A stretch of DNA of 64,000 nucleotides from Patescibacteria group bacterium (lineage in GTDB: Bacteria; Patescibacteriota; Patescibacteriia; JBHPGJ01), in the NCBI GenBank assembly GCA_042570545.1, contig JBHPGJ010000004.1, positions 2,223 to 66,222 on the forward strand. Reading direction: 5' to 3'. The position numbers and the translations under genes were made by a program. Of this stretch, positions 2,638 to 16,997 are shown piece by piece. The notes beneath the pieces are model-generated. The model had not been told where the DNA came from. It ran no database searches and was given only the letters and a program-made list of their open reading frames with translations. Positions within the stretch are counted from its first letter, which is position 1, and each line of letters opens with the position of its first letter.

Positions 2638-3072
2638 TTAGCCTAAAAATTTGATAACTTGGTCAATTAATTGGCTGGGGCTGGTATCGGTTTTGATTAA
2701 ATATTTATCCACTCCCAGACTCTTGGCTCTTTTAACGTAGATATCGTTATCCAAATTCGTAAGCACAAACACATGAGCATCGTGGGTAATATCACTTTGC
2801 TTGACCAGCTCTAAAATATCAAAACCAACCGGATGCTCATACTCGATCACCAAGTCGTTAGAAACTGGAATTATCAGATCAAGCAGTATTAACGGCGGCT
2901 GGTGCTTGAACAGCAAATCCAGAGCCTCTTCTTTGTTTGTCGCTACCAATAATGAGTAGTCAGTGTTTTTAAAAGCTGCTTGATAGACCTTGTTGATCAA
3001 CGGCTCATCCTCGATCAATAGTACCGTTGCTTTGGTCCTACTTGATTTTTTCTTTAGCTTCATTTTTATCAA
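2638..3072 (-). CDS. single-domain response regulator (CheY-like receiver)
   Basis: 144 aa with the receiver-domain pattern (VLLIEDEPLI...LILLDLIIP, conserved Asp and Lys). It overlaps the upstream histidine kinase by 35 nt. Confidence 0.7.
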   Translation of the reverse strand: MIKMKLKKKSSRTKATVLLIEDEPLINKVYQAAFKNTDYSLLVATNKEEALDLLFKHQPPLILLDLIIPVSNDLVIEYEHPVGFDILELVKQSDITHDAHVFVLTNLDNDIYVKRAKSLGVDKYLIKTDTSPSQLIDQVIKFLG

Positions 3073-6999: not shown

Positions 7000-7092
7000 G
7001 ATTTGAAGAAATGTTTAAGATATTTACTGAAAGTTTTTTAATTATACCATAAAAATGGCCAAATATCTACTTAAATAACTGGCATTTTTTAT

Positions 7093-7785
7093 TTAATTAA
7101 TTCTTGTTTTTCGAAAAATTATATAACTTGCAAAGCCCAACCATGCCACCGATGATGCTGGTCCAATAAAGTCGTAAGAATTAACTTGCCCCTGACCGAT
7201 CCAAGGTAATAACAAATTTGTAGTAATGCCAAATGCCGATGAAATTATTACACCAATCAATAAGTATTTAAGCTGCCAACGATGGATTCCATCACTATGT
7301 CTGAACTTTTTATATAAATTTATAAACGCCCAACCCCAAAAAGCAATAAAATAAAAGGCAAATAAATGATATGCCGAGCCGTAAAATATTTGATATGGTG
7401 CTTCATATTCAAAACCTTTAATAAATAAATCAGTAAATATTATTACCAATATAAAAATAATCGTGGGCACAAATAATATCAAATAATTTTTAATAGTAAT
7501 TATTTTTTCTTTAAAAGGAAAAACCCATGAGAATAGTAAAAAAGTTGCTAATATAAAAAGTGCAGCGATAAATGTAAAATTCCACCAAAACCATTTAAGA
7601 GACTCGTCGACACTTATATATCCAAATCCATTACTAAATACCCAAAAAGCAACAAATAATGCAAATAATCCAAACGAGATAGAAATTTCACTACGTGTTT
7701 TTCTCACCAATATATATAGCGCTAGAATAAATTCCACCGCGGCGATTGGTATTAATAAAAAATTACCCCAGAATATTATATCCAT
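7093..7785 (-). CDS. multi-pass membrane protein resembling the N-terminal 7TM sensor module of the adjacent histidine kinase
   Basis: 230 aa, about 7 TM helices. The spacing and composition parallel HK residues 1-230 (Arg/Lys after TM1, W/F-rich helices). Confidence 0.45.
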   Translation of the reverse strand: MDIIFWGNFLLIPIAAVEFILALYILVRKTRSEISISFGLFALFVAFWVFSNGFGYISVDESLKWFWWNFTFIAALFILATFLLFSWVFPFKEKIITIKNYLILFVPTIIFILVIIFTDLFIKGFEYEAPYQIFYGSAYHLFAFYFIAFWGWAFINLYKKFRHSDGIHRWQLKYLLIGVIISSAFGITTNLLLPWIGQGQVNSYDFIGPASSVAWLGFASYIIFRKTRIN

Positions 7786-7849
7786 TTCTCAATATTAATT
7801 AACATTTTAATTCCTCTTCAAAATAATATAACTAGAAAATCCCAACCAT

Positions 7850-8760
7850 ATCAATGACGAACTTGGTCCAATCCATCCCCATCTACTATATGATGTCAGT
7901 GGTAAAATAAATCCCCCGTCAGTAGATGAGAAGCTGGAGGGAAATCGGATACGGGATCCGCACAGGCTTCACGACATCTGATGTCGACGGGCGGTCTTCT
8001 CTCTATCTAAAGAATCGGCAGCCCCGCCACGGCGTAAAGCAAATTTTTTAGTCTCCGCTTAGATACGACCGTGGCAGGGCGATGGTGTATATTCACCAGA
8101 GATTAAAAATATGATAATAAATAATTATTGTCAAAAATAAGACCCGTAGCAATGGGTCAGACGATCCCAGCCCCTGATATGGGAGTCGCTTGAACAACTG
8201 CTACGGGCAAATAACTGCCCGACTGTCTTGCTCCGCACGTCCCCACGCGCCATCTCCTCCGTCACTAGGAACCCCGCTCAACAGTCGGGCATAAAGAATA
8301 ACTTTGCCCACATATTAACTGTTATAATTATTCTGTCAAGTAATAAAAAGGCCCGTCGCTAGGCAGATAGTGAGTAAGGTGGGGAGGAAGTCCTTGCCTC
8401 ACAAAAGCGCAGCGACGGGAATCGGATGACCTGACCGGCACAACAATCCAAGGGGGATTACCTTATGTAGAAGATTGTTCACCGGCCAGGCCGAAAAAGA
8501 ATTGGGCTCCTGTTAGAAATCCCTGATACACTTTGTGCTATTAACCCCACCACCTCCTTTACCGATTTAGGTGGTCAACAGAAGTCAGCTACCCAGGAGC
8601 CCAAAAGGATAAATAAGGGTTGGCACATACCAGCACCGTTGTCTCAATGTTGTTGCTGTCTTTTTACCACCTCACCAGCCGACCCTTATTATTTATGAAA
8701 ACTGAACGGCTTGTACAAGTTAATATTAATAGAAATTTCTGTCAAGAAAAAAACCCATCT
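7850..8760. ncRNA. candidate large structured noncoding RNA (family unassigned; strand undetermined)
   Basis: About 1.1 kb with no ORF of 60 aa or more, and visibly GC-richer than the flanking AT-rich coding sequence. Nested complementary stems are present (CCCGACTG 8218-8225 / CAGTCGGG 8282-8289; CCCGTCGCT 8352-8360 / AGCGACGGG 8411-8419; GACCC...GGGTC 8141-8158; hairpins GGGCA-loop-TGCCC on each side of the first stem). GGGAAaTCGGAT occurs at ~7940 and ~8417. Confidence 0.35.
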
Positions 8761-8798
8761 AAGGGCTTACGATAAATAATTTATAAAAAATTATTCTA

Positions 8799-8885
8799 CT
8801 ACCACCTTGCTTTGGCAGCGAATAAAACCACTCCCAGCAGAATCAGTCCGATTATCACTCCCATTATTTGACCTTGGGTAACCAT
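8799..8885 (-). CDS. candidate 28-aa hydrophobic micropeptide (MVTQGQIMGVIIGLILLGVVLFAAKARW)
   Basis: ATG at 8885 and TAG at 8799-8801 give a single TM helix. TTGACA and TATAAT hexamers lie immediately upstream (13-nt spacer, suboptimal), so it could be leaderless. Below the ORF-track size cutoff. Confidence 0.2.
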   Translation of the reverse strand: MVTQGQIMGVIIGLILLGVVLFAAKARW

Positions 8886-8922
8886 GGCTATATTATATCA
8901 GTTTATTTAATGTCAGCCAATG

Positions 8923-9534
8923 TTATTTATTTTCCGACTTTGGCTTAGCTGGTTTGTTGGTCACTGCTTTATCCGCTTGTCTGCGTCCTAGCTCGGCCGC
9001 TATGCTATCCACCCAAGCACCAACACCTACTCCCGTAAGTACTATAGCAATAAATATAATAAGCAGATTAATAAGCGGCTGATCGATGTTCTTATAGACG
9101 GCAAAGACAATGGCCCCTATCCAGGAAAAAAGTGAAATAACACCACTGACAACACCACGGGTCTTGAGTTGATAGTATTTATCAGTTGCTTCCTCATGAA
9201 ACAGCGGTGTCAGCTCCTGGATGCGCGGTCCGACGCGGAGATTGAGATAGACGCCATTGGCTACCAGCAGCAGCACCAAGATCAGTTTCATCTGGAACCG
9301 GGCATCAGTCAGGTAATAATCCGGCCTCTCAGCTGTTAAAAATATCCCTGAGGTGATCAGAAGAATTAAACCCACCCACACCATCATGGACATTATTGGC
9401 GAGAATTTGACTAAAAAGTGTGAATATTTCTTCTCTCGTTCATATATAAACCACATCACATCAACTACAAATACCGAGCCTAGACTTATAGCTAAACCTA
9501 TAAAATGAATTAACAACCAGGTAGCGTGTGCCAT
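8923..9534 (-). CDS. hypothetical integral membrane protein
   Basis: 203 aa with 5-6 TM helices. No recognisable family. Confidence 0.5.
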   Translation of the reverse strand: MAHATWLLIHFIGLAISLGSVFVVDVMWFIYEREKKYSHFLVKFSPIMSMMVWVGLILLITSGIFLTAERPDYYLTDARFQMKLILVLLLVANGVYLNLRVGPRIQELTPLFHEEATDKYYQLKTRGVVSGVISLFSWIGAIVFAVYKNIDQPLINLLIIFIAIVLTGVGVGAWVDSIAAELGRRQADKAVTNKPAKPKSENK

Positions 9535-9575
9535 ATTGGGATTAATTATAAGTTAATTATTCAAAAAAGTGAATA

Positions 9576-9625
9576 ACAAAAACACCTTGATAAAGGCCGG
9601 AGCCGTCTGCCAAGGTGCTTTTGTT
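9576..9625. terminator. rho-independent terminator hairpin, bidirectional
   Basis: The CACCTTG (9584-9590) ... CAAGGTG (9611-9617) stem is flanked by an A-run upstream and a T-run downstream. It sits between the small acidic ORF and the 8923..9534 gene. Confidence 0.55.
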
Positions 9626-9643
9626 AATTGAATAAAGATACTT

Positions 9644-9739
9644 CTATTCAGCCGGTGCTTCAGGAGTAGCTTCTTCCTCCTTCTTCTCTTCAGTACCTTC
9701 GCCTTCTGTTGTAGGCTGATCCATTGTCTCTTCGTCCAT
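9644..9739 (-). CDS. candidate 31-aa highly acidic peptide (MDEETMDQPTTEGEGTEEKKEEEATPEAPAE)
   Basis: A perfect SD AAGGAGG lies 8 nt upstream of the ATG at 9739, the stop is TAG at 9644-9646, and the terminator follows. Below the ORF-track cutoff. Confidence 0.3.
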   Translation of the reverse strand: MDEETMDQPTTEGEGTEEKKEEEATPEAPAE

Positions 9740-9906
9740 TGTTTTCACCTCCTTAGGGTCTATCTATTAAAACGCTTCCAAATAAATATTGATTTAGAAG
9801 CAATTAATATAGCGATACTATATTACGCGTAAAATATTGTCAATAGTATTTTCAAATATTTCCAACCGCCGGCGACTCCGGTGTCAAGCTGGTTGTTAAC
9901 AATTAA

Positions 9907-10134
9907 TTATTCCTTATCTTCTTCCAGTTCAGAAAATTTCTTCTTGATCGATTCTACCCTATTCTCTACCTCTGACAATTTGGTTTTTAGTTCCTCTGCT
10001 ATTTTAAGACCGCGCTCAAACTTGACCAAACCTTCTTCCAGGTCAACTGACTCATCATCAAATGACTCAGCGATTTTTTCGAGCTCATCAAACTTATGAG
10101 CGAAGTTGAATTTTGGTGATTGTTTCTTAGTCAT
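9907..10134 (-). CDS. xseB: exodeoxyribonuclease VII small subunit
   Basis: 75 aa, helical, with an XseB-like pattern (ESFDDESVDLEEGLVKFERGLKIAEELKTKL). It overlaps xseA by 8 nt. Confidence 0.8.
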   Translation of the reverse strand: MTKKQSPKFNFAHKFDELEKIAESFDDESVDLEEGLVKFERGLKIAEELKTKLSEVENRVESIKKKFSELEEDKE

Positions 10135-11383
10135 AGGTTTTCTTGGTTTCAGAGATTATATTACCTGATGCCAGCCGAGTGCGCAACTTGTCGCCGGTCT
10201 TGATCTGGCTGGTTTTTTTTAGCGGTTTATTAGCCGGTCCGTAGGTAATGCTATAGCCCCGATCCATTGTCGCTTGCGGTGATAGAGCTTTAAGTAATTT
10301 TAATAATCTAGTTAATTGATCTTTCTTTAGTCTGACTGATTGTTTGATACCAAAACACAATCTATCATTCAGCCTGGTCAACGAGTCGGCAGAAGATAAA
10401 AGTGTCTGACTATAGGCTGATAATTTTATTCGCATACTTTGTCTGAGCTGGCCATATCTCTCCTGCCAGCGTCTAGGTCCGCGGACGATATTGCCGATAG
10501 CCTGACTGAGTCTCTGATTGCCGGTTTCTACCGCACTATAAAACTGACGGTAGATAGTTAGTTCAAAATTATTTACCAAGCTCAAGATATCACTCTTATC
10601 AGGCGTGACTGACTCAGCCGCATTGGACGGTGTGGCAGCCCTAAAGTCAGCTACCAGATCAGCTATTGACCAATCGCGCTCATGCCCCACGCCTACGACT
10701 ACCGGAATATCAGAGGCAAATATTGCTCGAGCTACTTTTTCTGAATTAAATGACTGTAGGTCTTCTAGCGATCCCCCGCCCCTGGTCAGGATAATCGCTT
10801 CCACTCCAGTACTTTTTTGAAAATATTTAAAAGCCTGCAATATGCTGCCAACCGAGGCATCGCCCTGAACCTGAACCGGAAAAAACTCAATAATCATGCC
10901 TGTCCAACGATTATTTAGTACCCGCAAAACATCATTATAGGCGGCGGCATCAGGCGATGTTATCAAGCCAATACGGCCCGGAAAGCGCGGCAGTGAACGC
11001 TTGCGCTCGGGGGCAAATAAGCCTTCTTTTATTAGCTTGTTTTTCAATAACTGCAGAGCTTTAGCCAGGGCGCCCTCACCCACAGGTCGTACTTTGACAG
11101 CTCGCAAGTGAAAACCAGAATTTTTTTTAAACAAAGACGGTGAGCCGATCACTTGAACTTCCATGCCATCTTCTAGCTCCACATCAAGCTGATAATCGAG
11201 CATAAAAACCGTCAGCCGTGATGACTCGTCCTTGATCTCAAAAAAAATAAGCTTATTACCCGCTGACCGCTGACGAAACCCGGTGATCTCTCCCTGGACA
11301 ACCACGGTGCCAAAAGTAGCACTCAAAGAATCCCTGACCAGATCATTGAATTCAGCTACCTTATAAACTCTGGCCTTATTCAT
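10127..11383 (-). CDS. xseA: exodeoxyribonuclease VII large subunit
   Basis: 418 aa with an N-terminal OB fold (VVVQGEITGFRQRSAGNKLIFFEIKDE) and the catalytic-domain motif RGGGSLEDL...VGHERD. Confidence 0.9.
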   Translation of the reverse strand: MNKARVYKVAEFNDLVRDSLSATFGTVVVQGEITGFRQRSAGNKLIFFEIKDESSRLTVFMLDYQLDVELEDGMEVQVIGSPSLFKKNSGFHLRAVKVRPVGEGALAKALQLLKNKLIKEGLFAPERKRSLPRFPGRIGLITSPDAAAYNDVLRVLNNRWTGMIIEFFPVQVQGDASVGSILQAFKYFQKSTGVEAIILTRGGGSLEDLQSFNSEKVARAIFASDIPVVVGVGHERDWSIADLVADFRAATPSNAAESVTPDKSDILSLVNNFELTIYRQFYSAVETGNQRLSQAIGNIVRGPRRWQERYGQLRQSMRIKLSAYSQTLLSSADSLTRLNDRLCFGIKQSVRLKKDQLTRLLKLLKALSPQATMDRGYSITYGPANKPLKKTSQIKTGDKLRTRLASGNIISETKKTYD

Positions 11384-11739: not shown

Positions 11740-11910
11740 TTACTCGCTGAGTCTAGGACTCGCCTGTTTTTCAAGGCACTGCTGGCAAATACGAGGTCTG
11801 TCCGACCGCCGGCCGCAGAAACCACAGCGATACCTAGGTATGCCAACGAGATAATACTTGCTAATTTGTTTCTCAGTCAAAGTTTTTAGAAGGTCTTGTT
11901 TGGTCTTCAT
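11740..11910 (-). CDS. candidate 56-aa CxxC-x9-CxxC zinc-ribbon protein (MKTKQDLLKTLTEKQISKYYLVGIPRYRCGFCGRRSDRPRICQQCLEKQASPRLSE)
   Basis: A perfect SD AAGGAGG lies 4-5 nt upstream of the ATG at 11910, the stop is TAA at 11740-11742, and a terminator lies 48 nt downstream. It is missing from the ORF track because it is under 60 aa. Confidence 0.5.
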   Translation of the reverse strand: MKTKQDLLKTLTEKQISKYYLVGIPRYRCGFCGRRSDRPRICQQCLEKQASPRLSE

Positions 11911-12273
11911 GGGGCCTCCTTTGCCTTATGACTAAGGAGCTGCTCACAGACTGCCGGACTATAGATAACGTTTATTACTTCAAGTGTATGCCAGGCTGAC
12001 CACATCCGCTTACCAGTTGGGCTGATATACGTAGGATCAGTGTTGTGTGAAAATTTGACTTGAGCACGTTAAAACAGCTGTCTATGAACAGCTCCCTAGC
12101 CACCTCGTCCCGACTTGAGACCAAAAAACCAAGATAATTCTAAACCTCTTCTCTGGGAGCAGTGATACGGGTTTTCAATGTACCGCCCTTGCTGTGATTA
12201 CCCTAGGAGTAGAGATTTTTTTTTGGTTTTTGCTTTTACTAATTATTATTTAATTGTCTAACAACACCAGAAC
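11911..12273 (-). promoter_or_regulatory. long untranslated leader; possible cis-regulatory RNA or ncRNA
   Basis: About 360 nt lie between the promoter and the SD with no credible ORF. Composition is mixed and there are multiple short inverted repeats. Confidence 0.3.
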
Positions 12274-12280
12274 ACTTTCC

Positions 12281-12310
12281 AGTATAGAACAGTAATTTTA
12301 AAGTTGTCAA
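12281..12310 (-). promoter_or_regulatory. sigma70-like promoter (TTGACA-N18-TATACT) driving a ~360-nt leader upstream of the zinc-ribbon ORF
   Basis: On the minus strand, TTGACA is the RC of 12305-12310 and TATACT the RC of 12281-12286. The predicted TSS is ~12274 and the first ORF start is at 11910. Confidence 0.45.
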
Positions 12311-13300: not shown

Positions 13301-14045
13301 TAAAAAGTACTTTTTGACATGTGCTATCTATACATTGTGCTATGTAGTTGGTGTTCTTATATTCACCCGGACAAGCCGAGGAGACGCAATTATCAATTGA
13401 TTGCTGCAGCTCCTGCAAGGATTGTAAATTTACTGCTACATATTCGGACTGGGCGTAGTCTTGTACTTCACAAAGTGGCCGATAGCAGGTTTCGTCGGTT
13501 AGATTTTTATTCACTATTGTGCAATCATTGCTGATCGAACATTTTATCGTTACCTGACCATCAAAATAAGTCAGCGGCAGCTCATCCTCGGGTCCATACT
13601 CGATACAAGCACAAGTACACTGGCCGGCCAAACACTCGAACATCGTACTAGTACTAGCCGGACAACTTACATTATCACAATATGTTGAGCAATCATTGCG
13701 AACTGTGCATTCACGGGCTGGCCCAATCGAATTAATATTTACACTGGTTGAATTGGAACTGTTGCTGGTGTTAATATTGACGCTAGAATTTGTGTTTGTA
13801 TTAATTATCAAACCCTGATTATTATTTTGACCGACGTTGGTATTACCAACTTCAATTAAATTGGTATTACTTATCGTATTCAACTGTTCGGCCAAGGCTG
13901 CAGCTTCGGCTCGGCTCTTGGCCAGGGCAACATTCAATTTATCCGTACCCTGCTTGTTTAAAACTATCGTACCTAAAACAAAAACCGTCAATGCCAACAC
14001 TAAGCTAATTGATAATATATTAAAAATGCTTTTTTTGTTTTCCAT
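13293..14045 (-). CDS. secreted/anchored Cys-rich protein with N-terminal signal-anchor, coiled coil and Asn/Ser/Thr-rich linker
   Basis: 250 aa. The C-terminal ~150 aa contain about 20 Cys in spaced CxxxC / C-x-C patterns. It belongs to the surface-protein operon. Confidence 0.5.
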   Translation of the reverse strand: MENKKSIFNILSISLVLALTVFVLGTIVLNKQGTDKLNVALAKSRAEAAALAEQLNTISNTNLIEVGNTNVGQNNNQGLIINTNTNSSVNINTSNSSNSTSVNINSIGPARECTVRNDCSTYCDNVSCPASTSTMFECLAGQCTCACIEYGPEDELPLTYFDGQVTIKCSISNDCTIVNKNLTDETCYRPLCEVQDYAQSEYVAVNLQSLQELQQSIDNCVSSACPGEYKNTNYIAQCIDSTCQKVLFNE

Positions 14046-14065
14046 TTAATAATTATCTGAGTTAA

Positions 14066-14710
14066 TTATTTGAACTGTACAGATTCCTTGATCAGGTCAA
14101 ATACATGGACGGCTTGTTCATATTCTTCAGCTTTGGCCAGAGCAACTATTTGGTATAAGGTACCCTGATAGTATACATTAATGACCTCAACTTTCCAGAT
14201 ACCATCACTACCAATTATTAATTCTGAAATTGCCGGCTGACCGCCGATTAATATCTGCTCCGTTCCGGTAGTAAAATCTTCGGGTGATTTATAATATGTC
14301 TCGTAGGTCTGCTGACAACTTAATAGATCACCGCACTGATCATCGTCTATGGTCATCACTGAAAAGCGTGAGCCGCCATAATTATTGCAAACAAAACCAC
14401 CCATATCAACATCTTCATCATCAAGCACTGACTGAGGCCGGTCTAGCTGCATACAGCCGGGCGGGTATTTAAAAGATATTTCTTGTCCACTAAGCGAGAA
14501 TCGGCTCCACTCATCATCATCAAAATTCTTGATACTATAGTCGGGCTGACTATTGATGTTGGTATTAACAGAGACGTCAAAAGTTTGAAATAAATAAATA
14601 ACAATAAATATGGCTACCAAGGCTAGTATAACAATCCCAAATACTATTTGTGTTGTGGCTAGTGGATTATCGTTAAATTTATTTTTTTTATCATATACTG
14701 ACTCAGGCAT
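14066..14710 (-). CDS. membrane-anchored extracytoplasmic protein, hypothetical
   Basis: 214 aa with a single N-terminal TM (FGIVILALVAIFIVIYLF) and an acidic ectodomain. Confidence 0.5.
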   Translation of the reverse strand: MPESVYDKKNKFNDNPLATTQIVFGIVILALVAIFIVIYLFQTFDVSVNTNINSQPDYSIKNFDDDEWSRFSLSGQEISFKYPPGCMQLDRPQSVLDDEDVDMGGFVCNNYGGSRFSVMTIDDDQCGDLLSCQQTYETYYKSPEDFTTGTEQILIGGQPAISELIIGSDGIWKVEVINVYYQGTLYQIVALAKAEEYEQAVHVFDLIKESVQFK

Positions 14711-14757
14711 ATTATTTGCTGTAGCTGTTTATATTGAATAATATCTTCTCAACCATG

Positions 14758-15855
14758 CTAGTAAATGATTATAGTGCTCATAATATCATCCAACATTTCT
14801 AAGCCTGATAACTGCTGATCACCGGTTGGGACAAAACCGCTGATGGTATATCTCTTATCATTTACTATGGTTCCTATAACAATAGCTCGGGAACTACCTT
14901 CAACCTGGCTGTCAGTAATTAACTTCTTAAATTGTTTATCATTTATTATGGCATAATCACAAGACAAGACAGTCTCGTACTCCGGATTACTGCTGTCGCA
15001 GCTGATGACATTTTCAACGGTGTTATTATCAGAGTTATTATAGATAGCAAAATCGGCTTTTATCATACCGTCATCCAGCCCGCCGCGACCGGCTGCCTGG
15101 GTCGTATCCCAATTGGTTAAGATCCAGCTAAAGACATCATTTATCTGGGATTCACTGCCTATGAACCATCCCTCCGTGGGATACTTAAAATTCAAAGATC
15201 CATCACTGCTATTATAAGTCTGCCAATCAGCTGTTGGATCTTTAAAAAACTGAAAAGTAGTCAAGACTTGCGCCAGTTCAGGATAATCTTCAACATAAAC
15301 AGTCGCCCAGGCTAATTTGATAAAACCGTCCACGGTTGGAAAATAAACCGCATCTAACTCGGTTAATCCCAGTTCCAATTGTCTAGTTACATCAAGTCCA
15401 TTAATTGTTTCGGTTCTTGTATCCGATACATCAGTGGTCACCATTGTATCAACAAATTGCATTGTTACGGTCGGCGCCAACTCCGGTGATGATTCGGTGC
15501 CGGCGTCAGTCGGATAAACTTGAGTAAAGGTCGGCTGTACGTTCTTAGCCCAGCCTAGGGGGTATTTTATAGTGTAGTTATATTCATCATTTGTATAAGC
15601 CAACCAGTTGGTCGTATTGGCTGCCGAGTTGGTGTTAATCAGGCTGGTGTTGGTAACGATAGCAGTATTTGTATTTTCTGTGGTTCGGTTGGTATTTAAT
15701 ATGGTGTTGTTTGTGGCGACTGGAGTATTGGTATTAACATTAGTATCATTATCAACCTCCAGCTTGAACCACACCATAGCACTTACCACAGCTAAGGAAA
15801 TCACAGCGATCACAATTACCGCAACGATATGAATATAGGCTTTTTGGTTAATCAT
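14758..15855 (-). CDS. surface protein, paralog family A (N-terminal anchor MINQKAYIHIVAVI..., Thr/Asn-rich linker, C-terminal globular domain)
   Basis: 365 aa. The conserved N-terminus is shared with 15858..16997 and 20440..21936, followed by a low-complexity TNTN linker. Confidence 0.55.
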   Translation of the reverse strand: MINQKAYIHIVAVIVIAVISLAVVSAMVWFKLEVDNDTNVNTNTPVATNNTILNTNRTTENTNTAIVTNTSLINTNSAANTTNWLAYTNDEYNYTIKYPLGWAKNVQPTFTQVYPTDAGTESSPELAPTVTMQFVDTMVTTDVSDTRTETINGLDVTRQLELGLTELDAVYFPTVDGFIKLAWATVYVEDYPELAQVLTTFQFFKDPTADWQTYNSSDGSLNFKYPTEGWFIGSESQINDVFSWILTNWDTTQAAGRGGLDDGMIKADFAIYNNSDNNTVENVISCDSSNPEYETVLSCDYAIINDKQFKKLITDSQVEGSSRAIVIGTIVNDKRYTISGFVPTGDQQLSGLEMLDDIMSTIIIY

Positions 15856-15857
15856 AA

Positions 15858-16997
15858 TTAGCGATAAAACAATAGACTATCAACTATTTTATTGAAAGTA
15901 TTTAGAGAACTAATGCTATTGTAGCCATGATAATACAGCTGATACTGATCGCCGCCGAAGTCAAAGAAAACATAGGCTGCCTCTGTACCAGCGGACGGTG
16001 CTGGCCCCTCAACGTCCTTGAAGGTGCCGATTACTCTGGTAGCTGGCCGGCCACCGACGGTAATTTCTGTCCTCTCGGTCACATTTAGCGCATCGGCCAC
16101 GCTCTGTATTTCTGATTCAGTGGTGCTTTCACCCTGGAATATTTTAATATTTATTCGGGTTGATCCGCCGGCATTGCAGATGGGAGCATAGGCATCATCT
16201 ATATACAGACCAGAGTAATCAGAACCGCAAGTGGTGATAGACCAATCGGGTGGATAAGCAAAGGTAAAGCCATAGGTTTCATTGTCTTGAGTTGGCCAGT
16301 TGGGCTTGTCGGCGACGGTAAAATCAAATATATCAACTAATTGCAGAAATTGCGCATGCGAAGGAGTCTGATCGGCAAACTCAGTCTTGGCATCAAACTC
16401 AATACCCCAGGTAGCGGCATTGTACGAGAAGAAGTAGTAATCAACCATTGATTCAAAGGCTCCCAATACTCTCGTCTGGTTCGCATCGTGGGTTCCCTGT
16501 ATACGATAGCCATCAACTCCGAGAATCTTAATTGGTTCTGGAGTTAAACCACCTGACATACTCTCGGCAAATGTCAGTAGATCGTTCTGAAAGTGATATG
16601 AGACTATGCCTATAGATCCTGGACCAACCGCATCAGTATACAACGCACTGTCTTTGTTTGGATTAGCTTCTGACGCTATTCGAATAATGCCGGCCAGTCC
16701 CCCGTTTTCGTGCCACTTAACTTCGGTATCCGGTGGATACTTAAATGTAACTCCAAGAAAATCATTAGTATAAGTATGCCAGATGGCGTCTTCCCTAACC
16801 GAAACATTGGTATTGATTATCGATTGATTGGTATTCTGATTACTGCTCGGTTCGTCTTTGCTTATACCTACGGTTGTGTTAGTATCGTCAATTTTATCTA
16901 CTTCGGTTTTAAAATAAACCATGGCGGCGACTACCGTAATAGCGATAGCGCTGATCGTTATTACGGCGACAATGTGCGTAAAAGCTTTTTGATTCAT
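15858..16997 (-). CDS. surface protein, paralog family A (MNQKAFTHIVAVI... anchor)
   Basis: 379 aa with a 3-nt intergenic gap. Same N-terminal module and a divergent C-terminal domain. Confidence 0.55.
   Translation of the reverse strand: MNQKAFTHIVAVITISAIAITVVAAMVYFKTEVDKIDDTNTTVGISKDEPSSNQNTNQSIINTNVSVREDAIWHTYTNDFLGVTFKYPPDTEVKWHENGGLAGIIRIASEANPNKDSALYTDAVGPGSIGIVSYHFQNDLLTFAESMSGGLTPEPIKILGVDGYRIQGTHDANQTRVLGAFESMVDYYFFSYNAATWGIEFDAKTEFADQTPSHAQFLQLVDIFDFTVADKPNWPTQDNETYGFTFAYPPDWSITTCGSDYSGLYIDDAYAPICNAGGSTRINIKIFQGESTTESEIQSVADALNVTERTEITVGGRPATRVIGTFKDVEGPAPSAGTEAAYVFFDFGGDQYQLYYHGYNSISSLNTFNKIVDSLLFYR

Follow-up and report, generated by a model that had tools for sequence, protein, structure and literature searches.

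Tandem Candidate Small RNA Genes in an Intergenic Block of a Patescibacteria Genome

Sibling small RNAs that are encoded in tandem and act in trans are known from several bacteria, and include LhrC1-4 of Listeria, Qrr1-5 of Vibrio, and PrrF1/F2 of Pseudomonas. Patescibacteria, also referred to as the Candidate Phyla Radiation (CPR), are ultra-small, mostly uncultured organisms with few regulators, and our literature search found no paper on RNA-based regulators or on small RNAs of this kind in them. Here, we describe an intergenic block located in a 64-kb stretch of contig JBHPGJ010000004.1 from a Patescibacteria group bacterium. The whole stretch is referred to as the window, and coordinates given without a locus name are positions within it. 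Read on the minus strand, the block looks like three head-to-tail units, annotated as A, B, and C, each with its own promoter and terminator signals, and it probably consists of three independently transcribed, lineage-specific small RNA genes in tandem.

A second point of comparison is provided by genomic screens. In the available descriptions of DIMPL and related screens, intergenic regions rich in guanine and cytosine (GC) predict structured noncoding RNAs (PMC6429828, PMC8723152, PMC11109978). The block resembles the regions described there in that it is a long intergenic region with more GC than the sequence around it, and the genome is one of modest GC content. It differs in that the screens, as far as those descriptions go, yield mostly riboswitches and cis-acting motifs, whereas the units in the window appear to be free-standing, carry terminators, and match no Rfam motif. 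Structured RNAs of CPR bacteria can also escape standard models, as 10 of 35 circular CPR genomes have RNase P RNAs that fall below the Rfam cut-offs, and these diverged RNAs are still recovered by RF00010 at lowered thresholds (PMC8172020).

Organization and predicted folding of the array

Three perfect TTGACA boxes, followed by 16-17-nt spacers and TANNNT -10-like hexamers, are found in the AT-rich gaps upstream of the GC-rich units, and these gaps read as promoters on the minus strand (Table 1). Each unit ends in a GC-closed hairpin and a U-run, and the next promoter lies within 0-6 nt. The promoter of unit A starts 2 nt past the U-run of the upstream terminator and has a weak -10 hexamer (3/6 matches), and the -35 box of unit C overlaps the U-tract of unit B, with two T in common. 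Over positions 7000-9600, 19 promoter-like sites were observed, as compared to 7.8 ± 2.9 in shuffles. From these signals, we infer that the units are transcribed separately as small RNAs. In this reading, a sigma-70-type promoter with a consensus TTGACA -35 box would drive each unit separately, and transcription would stop at a long hairpin with a GC-closed stem (CCCGUNG.../...CNACGGG) and the U-run behind it. The array would represent a fast-evolving and apparently lineage-specific set of RNAs downstream of xseA, xseB, and the genes for an acidic peptide and a 28-aa membrane peptide, in a small and rarely sampled clade of Patescibacteria.

The predicted folds are consistent with structured transcripts. 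The fold of unit A has a free energy of -126.9 kcal/mol (z = -3.3 against dinucleotide shuffles), that of unit B -72.2 kcal/mol (z = -3.8), and that of unit C -71.7 kcal/mol (z = -3.45, as compared to -2.0 for the plus strand), and no shuffle was equally stable in any of the three cases. Normalized for length, the stability of the units is -0.34 to -0.43 kcal/mol per nt, while thirty 200-nt coding segments from the same strand averaged -0.23 and did not go beyond -0.32. Over four loci (see below), 9 of the 11 units fold more stably as the sense than as the antisense strand, the difference reaching 34 kcal/mol (unit B, 13.5 kcal/mol; units of loci L002 and L003, 23-34 kcal/mol), as G-U pairs on the transcribed strand would give. 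Taken together, the promoters, the terminators, and the greater sense-strand stability assign the array to the minus strand. The predicted architecture is one of independent hairpins in series, four in unit A and two in unit B, with unpaired ends. Long-range helices are absent, and none crosses a unit border in the minimum-free-energy folds.

The original prediction, made from the sequence of the block, had proposed a structured RNA. This proposal is partly supported. The block folds better than both dinucleotide shuffles and coding sequence and is most likely RNA-coding rather than protein-coding. The features on which the proposal was based were recovered. The gap that lacks long open reading frames (ORFs) extends from 7786 to 8922 (1137 nt) and is the largest in the window, the runners-up being 691 and 592 nt. 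As had been stated, it contains no ORF of at least 60 aa on either strand. The longest has 51 aa (8620..8775, plus strand), and a Pfam search with nine ORFs of 30-51 aa inside the gap gave zero matches at E ≤ 1. The gap is partly coding, with a conserved gene for a 28-aa membrane peptide at its upstream end. The block had also been called conspicuously GC-richer, which is true with respect to its immediate flanks (0.43-0.52 over 7800-8700 versus 0.22-0.35) and does not hold across the window, where the mean is 0.40 and some genes, including coding stretches at 10.5-11.4 kb, likewise reach 0.45-0.52; the GC richness is therefore only a local contrast. The stems that had been named are all present. 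The pair 8218-8225/8282-8289 extends to a perfect 11-nt inverted repeat (8216-8226/8281-8291), 8352-8360/8411-8419 is the closing stem of a 68-nt hairpin, and 8141-8158 is a terminator-like hairpin. A recurring motif, GGGAA(A)TCGGAT, is present in GAGGGAAATCGGAT (7937-7950) and GACGGGAATCGGAT (8414-8427), which are 86% identical, and this two-copy repeat is weak evidence taken alone.

Conservation across four loci and kinship of the units

A search of several billion protein sequences with XseA (10127..11383) yielded only three close relatives, namely P0003 (63% identical, locus L003), P0004 (62%, L001), and P0005 (57%, L002). The samples behind L001-L003 are GCA_043802545.1, SRR16630573, and SRR22387999. 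The next relatives are ∼50% identical, several of them labelled Kerfeldbacteria, and the examples examined (L004-L006) lack the synteny. The four loci have a common order on the same strand, which consists of xseA, xseB, a small acidic ORF, the 28-aa membrane ORF, and tandem units bracketed by TTGACA boxes and terminators. In L001-L003, an acidic ORF of ∼105-135 aa follows the membrane ORF, and the window is without it. The 28-aa peptide (...GLILLGVVLFAAKARW) has a single predicted helix, is 50-71% identical across the loci (mean column identity 79%), and always adjoins the RNA array. It is too short for a listing of ORFs of at least 30 aa, and its only Pfam match, to a transmembrane domain, is below threshold.

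The island differs from genome to genome in the RNAs that it contains and in their order. The most complete relative is L001, in which 13876-16270 (plus strand) holds five promoter/terminator units, U1 (13.9-14.4 kb) to U5 (16.07-16.27 kb), interrupted by a gene for a sigma-70-family factor (∼15.09-15.74 kb). In L002, the homolog of unit A has its own promoter, follows a terminated upstream unit, and is located directly upstream of ssb, which has a structured leader of ∼170 nt (7670-7845). In L003, a perfect 15-bp inverted repeat, CCCCCACACCAATTG ... CAATTGGTGTGGGGG (2866-2947, plus strand), comes right after a unit terminator and reaches the contig end; it could be a further unit or an assembly edge.

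At the nucleotide level, blastn and nhmmer comparisons between the loci found no significant similarity among the RNA units. Only the 28-aa ORF could be aligned, with DNA conservation in L002 and L003 and weakly in L001, and the only k-mer shared between loci is one 14-mer, CGAGAGGTGGGGTC, in L002 and L003. Further loci were sought with anchors from the island. An exact look-up of two flanking proteins returned no record, the ∼110-aa acidic protein, used as a profile, recovered no copies beyond the three known ones, the peptide anchor gave 24 pattern matches in genome contigs of which none was confirmed, and the DNA anchor of the 28-aa ORF matched nothing in metagenome or genome contigs. The clade thus seems to be absent from those collections, which limits covariation to four loci.

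Two types of hairpin are retained despite this sequence divergence. Hairpin H1 of unit A is found in all four loci, where it has the 5' context UUUUGGGG (UAUGGGG in L001) and is followed by an A/U-rich linker and then GG. The order after H1 is kept as well, with a linker, H2, a second linker, and the terminal hairpin. In the closing stem of H1, 95.5% of the cells over the four loci are paired and 4 of 11 pairs are compensatory. Its covariation score is 0.65 versus 0.33 in shuffles, a value reached by 0 of 500, and slid partners pair at 25-50%. The terminal hairpin, CCCGUNG.../...CNACGGG followed by a U-rich tract, is common to A, B, C, L001-U1, L001-U5, and L002-Y, and over these six units it is 97.9% paired, with compensatory changes in 5 of 8 pairs. 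These stem counts describe retention with sequence change and are not an unbiased test.

An independent view of the kinship between units was provided by a covariance model, R1, that was built from unit B alone and run unfiltered against both strands of ∼200 kb of sequence. Beyond unit B and its reverse strand, the top match was 8344-8505 (minus strand), which corresponds to H2 and H3 of unit A (23 bits, E ∼1e-5), and the best match outside the RNA clusters scored 9.1 bits. The best two matches in L001 were 14282-14448, the 3' part of the unit A homolog U1, and 16076-16266, which is U5. The matches in L001 are on the correct strand and span whole units, and these targets were not hand-picked. 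The match to H2 and H3 of unit A argues that A and B are siblings, with B corresponding to the two hairpins on the 3' side of A, which has two more hairpins on its 5' side. Similarly, the matches to U1 and U5 indicate that the family is present in L001.

A short motif also connects the units. AUUCUUU is the commonest 7-mer in the 11 units, with seven copies in 2630 nt versus 0.38 expected from the remaining sense-strand sequence. This is an ∼18-fold enrichment (Poisson P ∼1.6e-7, or ∼0.003 after correction for all 7-mers). The motif occurs exactly once in each unit of the window, and four of the seven copies fall in a linker or leader that is predicted to be single-stranded and directly precedes a hairpin. 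The counterparts of unit C are weak. It shares GAUAGAGAG and the terminal domain with L001-U2, its local alignments with L001-U2, L001-U4, and L002-Y have z values of 1.7-4, and orthology is weak. With A and B it has in common only the type of terminal hairpin and AUUCUUU, and it is at most a possible sibling of these two.

Table 1. Coordinates and sequences of predicted features in the window and in related or matching contigs.
Feature	Position	Strand	Details
28-aa membrane peptide gene	8799..8885	-	MVTQGQIMGVIIGLILLGVVLFAAKARW; only stretch of the gap conserved at DNA level; synteny anchor, not RNA
Promoter of peptide gene	8920-8892	-	signal scan
Terminator of peptide gene	8768-8751	-	signal scan
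Promoter of unit A	8717..8745	-	-35 TTGACA 8745-8740, 17-nt spacer, -10 TAACTT 8722-8717
Unit A (∼365 nt)	8345..8710	-	H0, H1, H2, H3, then CCUUUUU (U-run 8349-8345)
Unit A, H0	8690-8612	-	predicted domain
Unit A, H1	8604-8502	-	predicted domain
Unit A, H2	8492-8428	-	predicted domain
Unit A, H3	8419-8352	-	predicted domain
Unit A, linker H1/H2	8502-8496	-	AUUCUUU
Unit A, linker H2/H3		-	AUCCGAUU
Promoter of unit B	8312..8339	-	TTGACA 8339-8334, 16-nt spacer, TAATAT 8317-8312; 10/12 consensus matches
Unit B (∼170 nt)	8133..8305	-	leader, H1, linker, terminal hairpin
Unit B, leader motif	8299-8293	-	AUUCUUU
Unit B, H1	8291-8216	-	followed by linker AGUUAUUU
Unit B, terminal hairpin	8207-8143	-	
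Unit B, 3' end	8158-8133	-	tip 8158-8141 scores as terminator; tract UUAUUUUU at 8140-8133
Promoter of unit C	8106..8134	-	TTGACA 8134-8129, 17-nt spacer, TATTTT 8111-8106
Unit C (∼195 nt)	7904..8099	-	mini-hairpin, H1, linker, terminal domain; contains an inverted repeat
Unit C, 5' mini-hairpin	8097-8084	-	
Unit C, H1	8080-8021	-	
Unit C, linker	8015-8009	-	AUUCUUU, plus GAUAGAGAG
Unit C, terminal domain	7994-7913	-	closed by CCCGUCG/UGACGGG, then AUUUAUUUU 7911-7904
Promoter-like site of HisKA_7TM membrane gene	7825..7854	-	TTGATA, 18-nt spacer, TATATT; marks array end
H1 closing stem, window			GGGCUCCUG / CAGGAGCCC
H1 closing stem, L002			GGGGUCAUG / CAUGACUCC
H1 closing stem, L003			GGGGUUGAG / CUCGACUCC
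H1 closing stem, L001			GGGGUUCCG / CGGAACCC
∼300-nt element, L007	10604-10907	+	
∼300-nt element, L008	903-1208	-	
∼300-nt element, L011	1468-1771	-	
∼300-nt element, L014	335-637	+	
∼300-nt element, L016	65-368	-	
∼300-nt element, L015	4-116	+	

Possible roles and alternative explanations

Several points weigh against the interpretation of the block as three small RNA genes. The primary sequence is barely conserved between the loci, MAFFT misaligns the units and whole-unit alignments are unreliable, and some of the apparent orthology, especially that of unit C, may reflect similar architecture alone. With four loci only, the covariation statistics are thin, and the H1 and terminal stems were hand-excerpted from hairpins predicted for each sequence, which biases them toward pairing. 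In addition, the transcript ends are predicted, the -10 hexamer is weak both in A (TAACTT) and in C (TATTTT), and the terminal hairpins, at 65-105 nt, far exceed the typical length of an intrinsic terminator. AUUCUUU is an A/U-rich motif of low information, C-rich and GGA motifs are not enriched in the units, and any regulatory mechanism is purely inferential.

If the units are RNAs, their most likely mode of action, though one of low confidence, is that of riboregulators acting in trans. The stable hairpins would serve as scaffold and terminator, and the single-stranded AUUCUUU linker, possibly together with C-rich loops (e.g., CUUCCUCCCCAC in H3 of unit A), would be the contact site for an mRNA or an RNA-binding protein. 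This proposal is based on an organization like that of tandem sibling small RNAs and on the shared single-stranded motif between variable stable hairpins. The C-rich loops and the Shine-Dalgarno-like AAGGAGGUGGUGGGG in H1 of unit A hint, speculatively, at an interplay with ribosome-binding sites. A further-reaching version, which we consider unlikely, is that the units form an undescribed class of structured RNA that acts on translation by mimicking or sequestering ribosome-binding sites or the 3' end of 16S rRNA. It draws on the G-rich, Shine-Dalgarno-like AAGGAGGUGGUGGGG, a hairpin with a GGUGGGG heptaloop in L002 and L003, the C-rich loop CUUCCUCCCCACCUU in H3 of unit A, which resembles an anti-Shine-Dalgarno sequence, and the AUUCUUU linker. 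If true, it would represent a compact RNA-based layer of control in an organism with very few protein regulators.

Two related candidates were rejected. Small translated ORFs behind the Shine-Dalgarno-like motifs have the wrong start-codon spacing by eye, and L002 does not share the candidate frames of the window. Sponges of the Csr/Rsm type display many GGA motifs in hairpin loops; the units have 3-5 GGA each, as compared to 2.8-5.1 expected from composition, and few of these are unpaired.

The units could instead be functionless, that is, fast-decaying and hairpin-rich intergenic DNA made up of gene remnants or duplicated modules, or mere insulating terminators and promoters. We regard this as rather unlikely. 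The very poor sequence conservation between loci would fit, as would the variable content and order of the units and the ∼105-135-aa acidic ORF missing from the window, which point to gene turnover, and terminator hairpins naturally resemble each other and appear to covary. However, CPR genomes are compact, and this gap is by far the largest noncoding one in 64 kb. There is no trace of protein similarity, and every unit keeps a full promoter and terminator with no gene between them. Moreover, H1, which is not a terminator, keeps its UUUUGGGG context and a compensated stem among loci whose XseA is only 57-63% identical to that of the window, and AUUCUUU is enriched in the units as described above. 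An origin as a pseudogene or mobile element was also rejected, as the short ORFs lack Pfam matches and the block shows no similarity to phage or plasmid records.

A role of the units in controlling the neighboring small genes, in cis or through linkage to the locus, is improbable; they would then be, for example, antitoxin RNAs of a type I system with the 28-aa peptide as toxin, or leaders or 3' untranslated regions. Type I toxins are typically short hydrophobic peptides, and a gene for a hydrophobic peptide with a single helix and its own promoter and terminator is located immediately upstream in all four loci. Against this, the RNAs are co-directional with and downstream of the peptide gene rather than antisense or divergent, complementarity of a unit to the peptide mRNA reaches at best 83% over 12 nt, and no hydrophobic ORF lies antisense to the units. 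The promoter and terminator that bracket each unit argue that the units are neither leaders nor untranslated regions, and the peptide is conserved at the amino-acid level like a normal membrane protein.

The original prediction had considered two or three housekeeping RNAs packed together, and the idea of several RNAs is retained here. Their identity as housekeeping RNAs is not supported by Rfam, ARAGORN, or the fold architecture, and we judge it very improbable that the units are highly diverged RNase P, transfer-messenger (tmRNA), signal recognition particle (SRP), or 6S RNAs. RNase P RNA is marked by the CR-I and CR-V sequences that form the long-range P4 helix; tmRNA by a tRNA-like domain made from paired 5' and 3' ends, a T-arm, and a tag reading frame; SRP RNA by a domain IV hairpin with a GNAR tetraloop and symmetric and asymmetric internal loops; and 6S RNA by a 150-200-nt rod with paired ends and a large central bubble. 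The sizes fit roughly, unit A (∼365 nt) being in the range of RNase P RNA or tmRNA and unit B (∼170 nt) in that of 6S RNA, and no such RNA was found elsewhere in the window, although 64 kb of an ∼1-Mb genome is not expected to hold these genes.

With Rfam 15, the whole window gave only a tRNA-Pro at 48.5 kb at the gathering threshold. At E ≤ 10, the scan that the original prediction had proposed returned no family, with only a 15.5-bit microRNA artefact for a 1.25-kb block and artefacts of 12-14 bits when the units were run one by one (an effective threshold of ∼12-15 bits). The three related loci gave nothing at E ≤ 1, and ARAGORN found no tmRNA in the window. The RNase P models RF00010 and RF00011 were unmatched at E ≤ 10 on the block and on unit A alone (threshold of ∼12-13 bits). 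A CR-I-like GGGGAGGAAGTCC was rejected, as it is on the plus strand and is the complement of the C-rich apical loop of the terminator hairpin H3 of unit A. The sole GAGGAAGUCC-like string is likewise on the plus strand, lies within the local 68-nt hairpin, and has no counterpart in the homologous hairpin of L001. SRP RNA had no Rfam match at E ≤ 10, and no domain-IV-type motif was seen by eye in any hairpin. 6S RNA also had no Rfam match, and the two hairpins of B and four of A leave the 5' and 3' ends unpaired. The beads-on-a-string folds thus have no end pairing, P4-type helix, tRNA-like domain, rod with a central bubble, or domain-IV-type loop, and the paralogy of A and B would be unexpected among different housekeeping RNAs. 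It is known that CPR RNAs can escape standard models, and the window units share with the diverged RNase P RNAs a CPR host and a failure to reach standard thresholds (PMC8172020). However, the latter keep their core and score with RF00010, whereas the window units are silent even at ∼12-15 bits and have an incompatible architecture.

Large ornate RNAs are single transcripts of 200 to >800 nt. The suggestion in the original prediction of one such RNA, here ∼0.9-1.1 kb with the AT-rich stretches as internal linkers, can be set aside as most improbable: the long, locally GC-rich, ORF-free stretch with many nested stems does have the classic signature as given in the available descriptions (PMC6429828, PMC8723152), but three consensus -35 boxes each follow a hairpin and U-run at the unit borders, no long-range helix spans those borders, the homologous units of L001 are separate with a sigma-factor gene between them, the arrangement in L002 differs, with a unit A homolog next to ssb that has its own promoter behind a terminated unit, independent hairpins in series do not suit such families, and ROOL, GOLLD, HEARO, OLE, and raiA gave no Rfam 15 match at the gathering threshold or at E ≤ 10.

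Neighboring elements and comparison with known systems

Other elements were noted in and around the island. Downstream of the array, the gene at 7785..7093 (minus strand) encodes a Pfam HisKA_7TM protein (E = 2e-17). Upstream, the small acidic ORF of 31 aa, MDEETMDQPTTEGEG... (9739..9644, minus strand), has a strong AAGGAGGUG ribosome-binding site and its own terminator, and in front of it are two TTGACA boxes separated by 44-47 nt (minus-strand promoters at 9887 and at 9843). L001, L002, and L003 have kept both the ORF and the pair of -35 boxes. Between the acidic and 28-aa ORFs, the window alone has a gene for a 203-aa membrane protein (8923..9534, minus strand). This protein has no homolog but itself among 5.8 billion protein clusters, and its Pfam matches are sub-threshold only (CopD, DUF2214). 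Farther upstream, the region 12310..11911 (minus strand) contains a consensus promoter (TTGACA, 17-nt spacer, TATACT) and, behind it, an ORF-free stretch of ∼365 nt with a long hairpin closed by AAAACCAA/UUGGUUUU. This stretch precedes a 56-aa zinc-ribbon-like ORF (11910..11740) with a AAAGGAGG site; a long structured leader is one possibility for it, and a further small RNA is another.

A scan of Joint Genome Institute (JGI) metagenomes with a 20-nt pattern, CGAGAGGTGGGGTCWCGWAW, built on the 14-mer common to L002 and L003, revealed a conserved element of ∼300 nt in six contigs of high GC content (∼0.6; Table 1). The element is located downstream of a gene ending in ...LLSKIKRYNIQ*, which resembles the C-terminus of a sigma-54 activator, and consists of a sigma-54-type promoter, TTGGCATACGGGTTGC, and a structured RNA with a long closed domain and a U-run at its end. 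This RNA has a UUCGAGA[GGUGGGG]UCUCGAAAAUUG hairpin, as found in unit X of L002. Rfam matched nothing in the element at E ≤ 0.1, and it may be an undescribed family of sigma-54-dependent small RNAs. As an explanation of the window the family was rejected, since its model matches only the 32-nt hairpin of L002 (15 bits, E = 0.18) and nowhere in the window. The GGUGGGG hairpin, which is also present in these sigma-54-driven RNAs of unrelated high-GC bacteria, might be a widespread and unrecognized RNA module.

The array would provide concrete candidates for an RNA-based regulatory layer in Patescibacteria, with counterparts in three related genomes. It also carries a warning for annotation, as three genes probably occupy the biggest "empty" gap of the contig. 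In practice the value of the array is limited, given that the clade is tiny (four loci), that transcription is predicted from sequence signals, and that lineage-specific small RNAs are common across bacteria.

The systems closest to this locus are probably the LhrC, Qrr, and PrrF arrays, to which the units have no relationship in sequence or in Rfam. The host is different, being a member of the Patescibacteria. The known RNAs are ∼100-150 nt, whereas the window units are 170-365 nt, differ in length by added 5' hairpins, and have unusually long terminal hairpins. The likeness is in the organization: a single intergenic region holds several paralogous genes, one behind the other in the same orientation, and every gene has a promoter of its own and a terminator of the Rho-independent type. 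As in those arrays, the stems vary while a short single-stranded motif, here AUUCUUU, is common to the siblings, and the genes seem confined to a single lineage, with quick turnover. The units are thus an unannotated instance of a familiar kind, namely lineage-specific bacterial small RNA genes, arranged as a sibling array.

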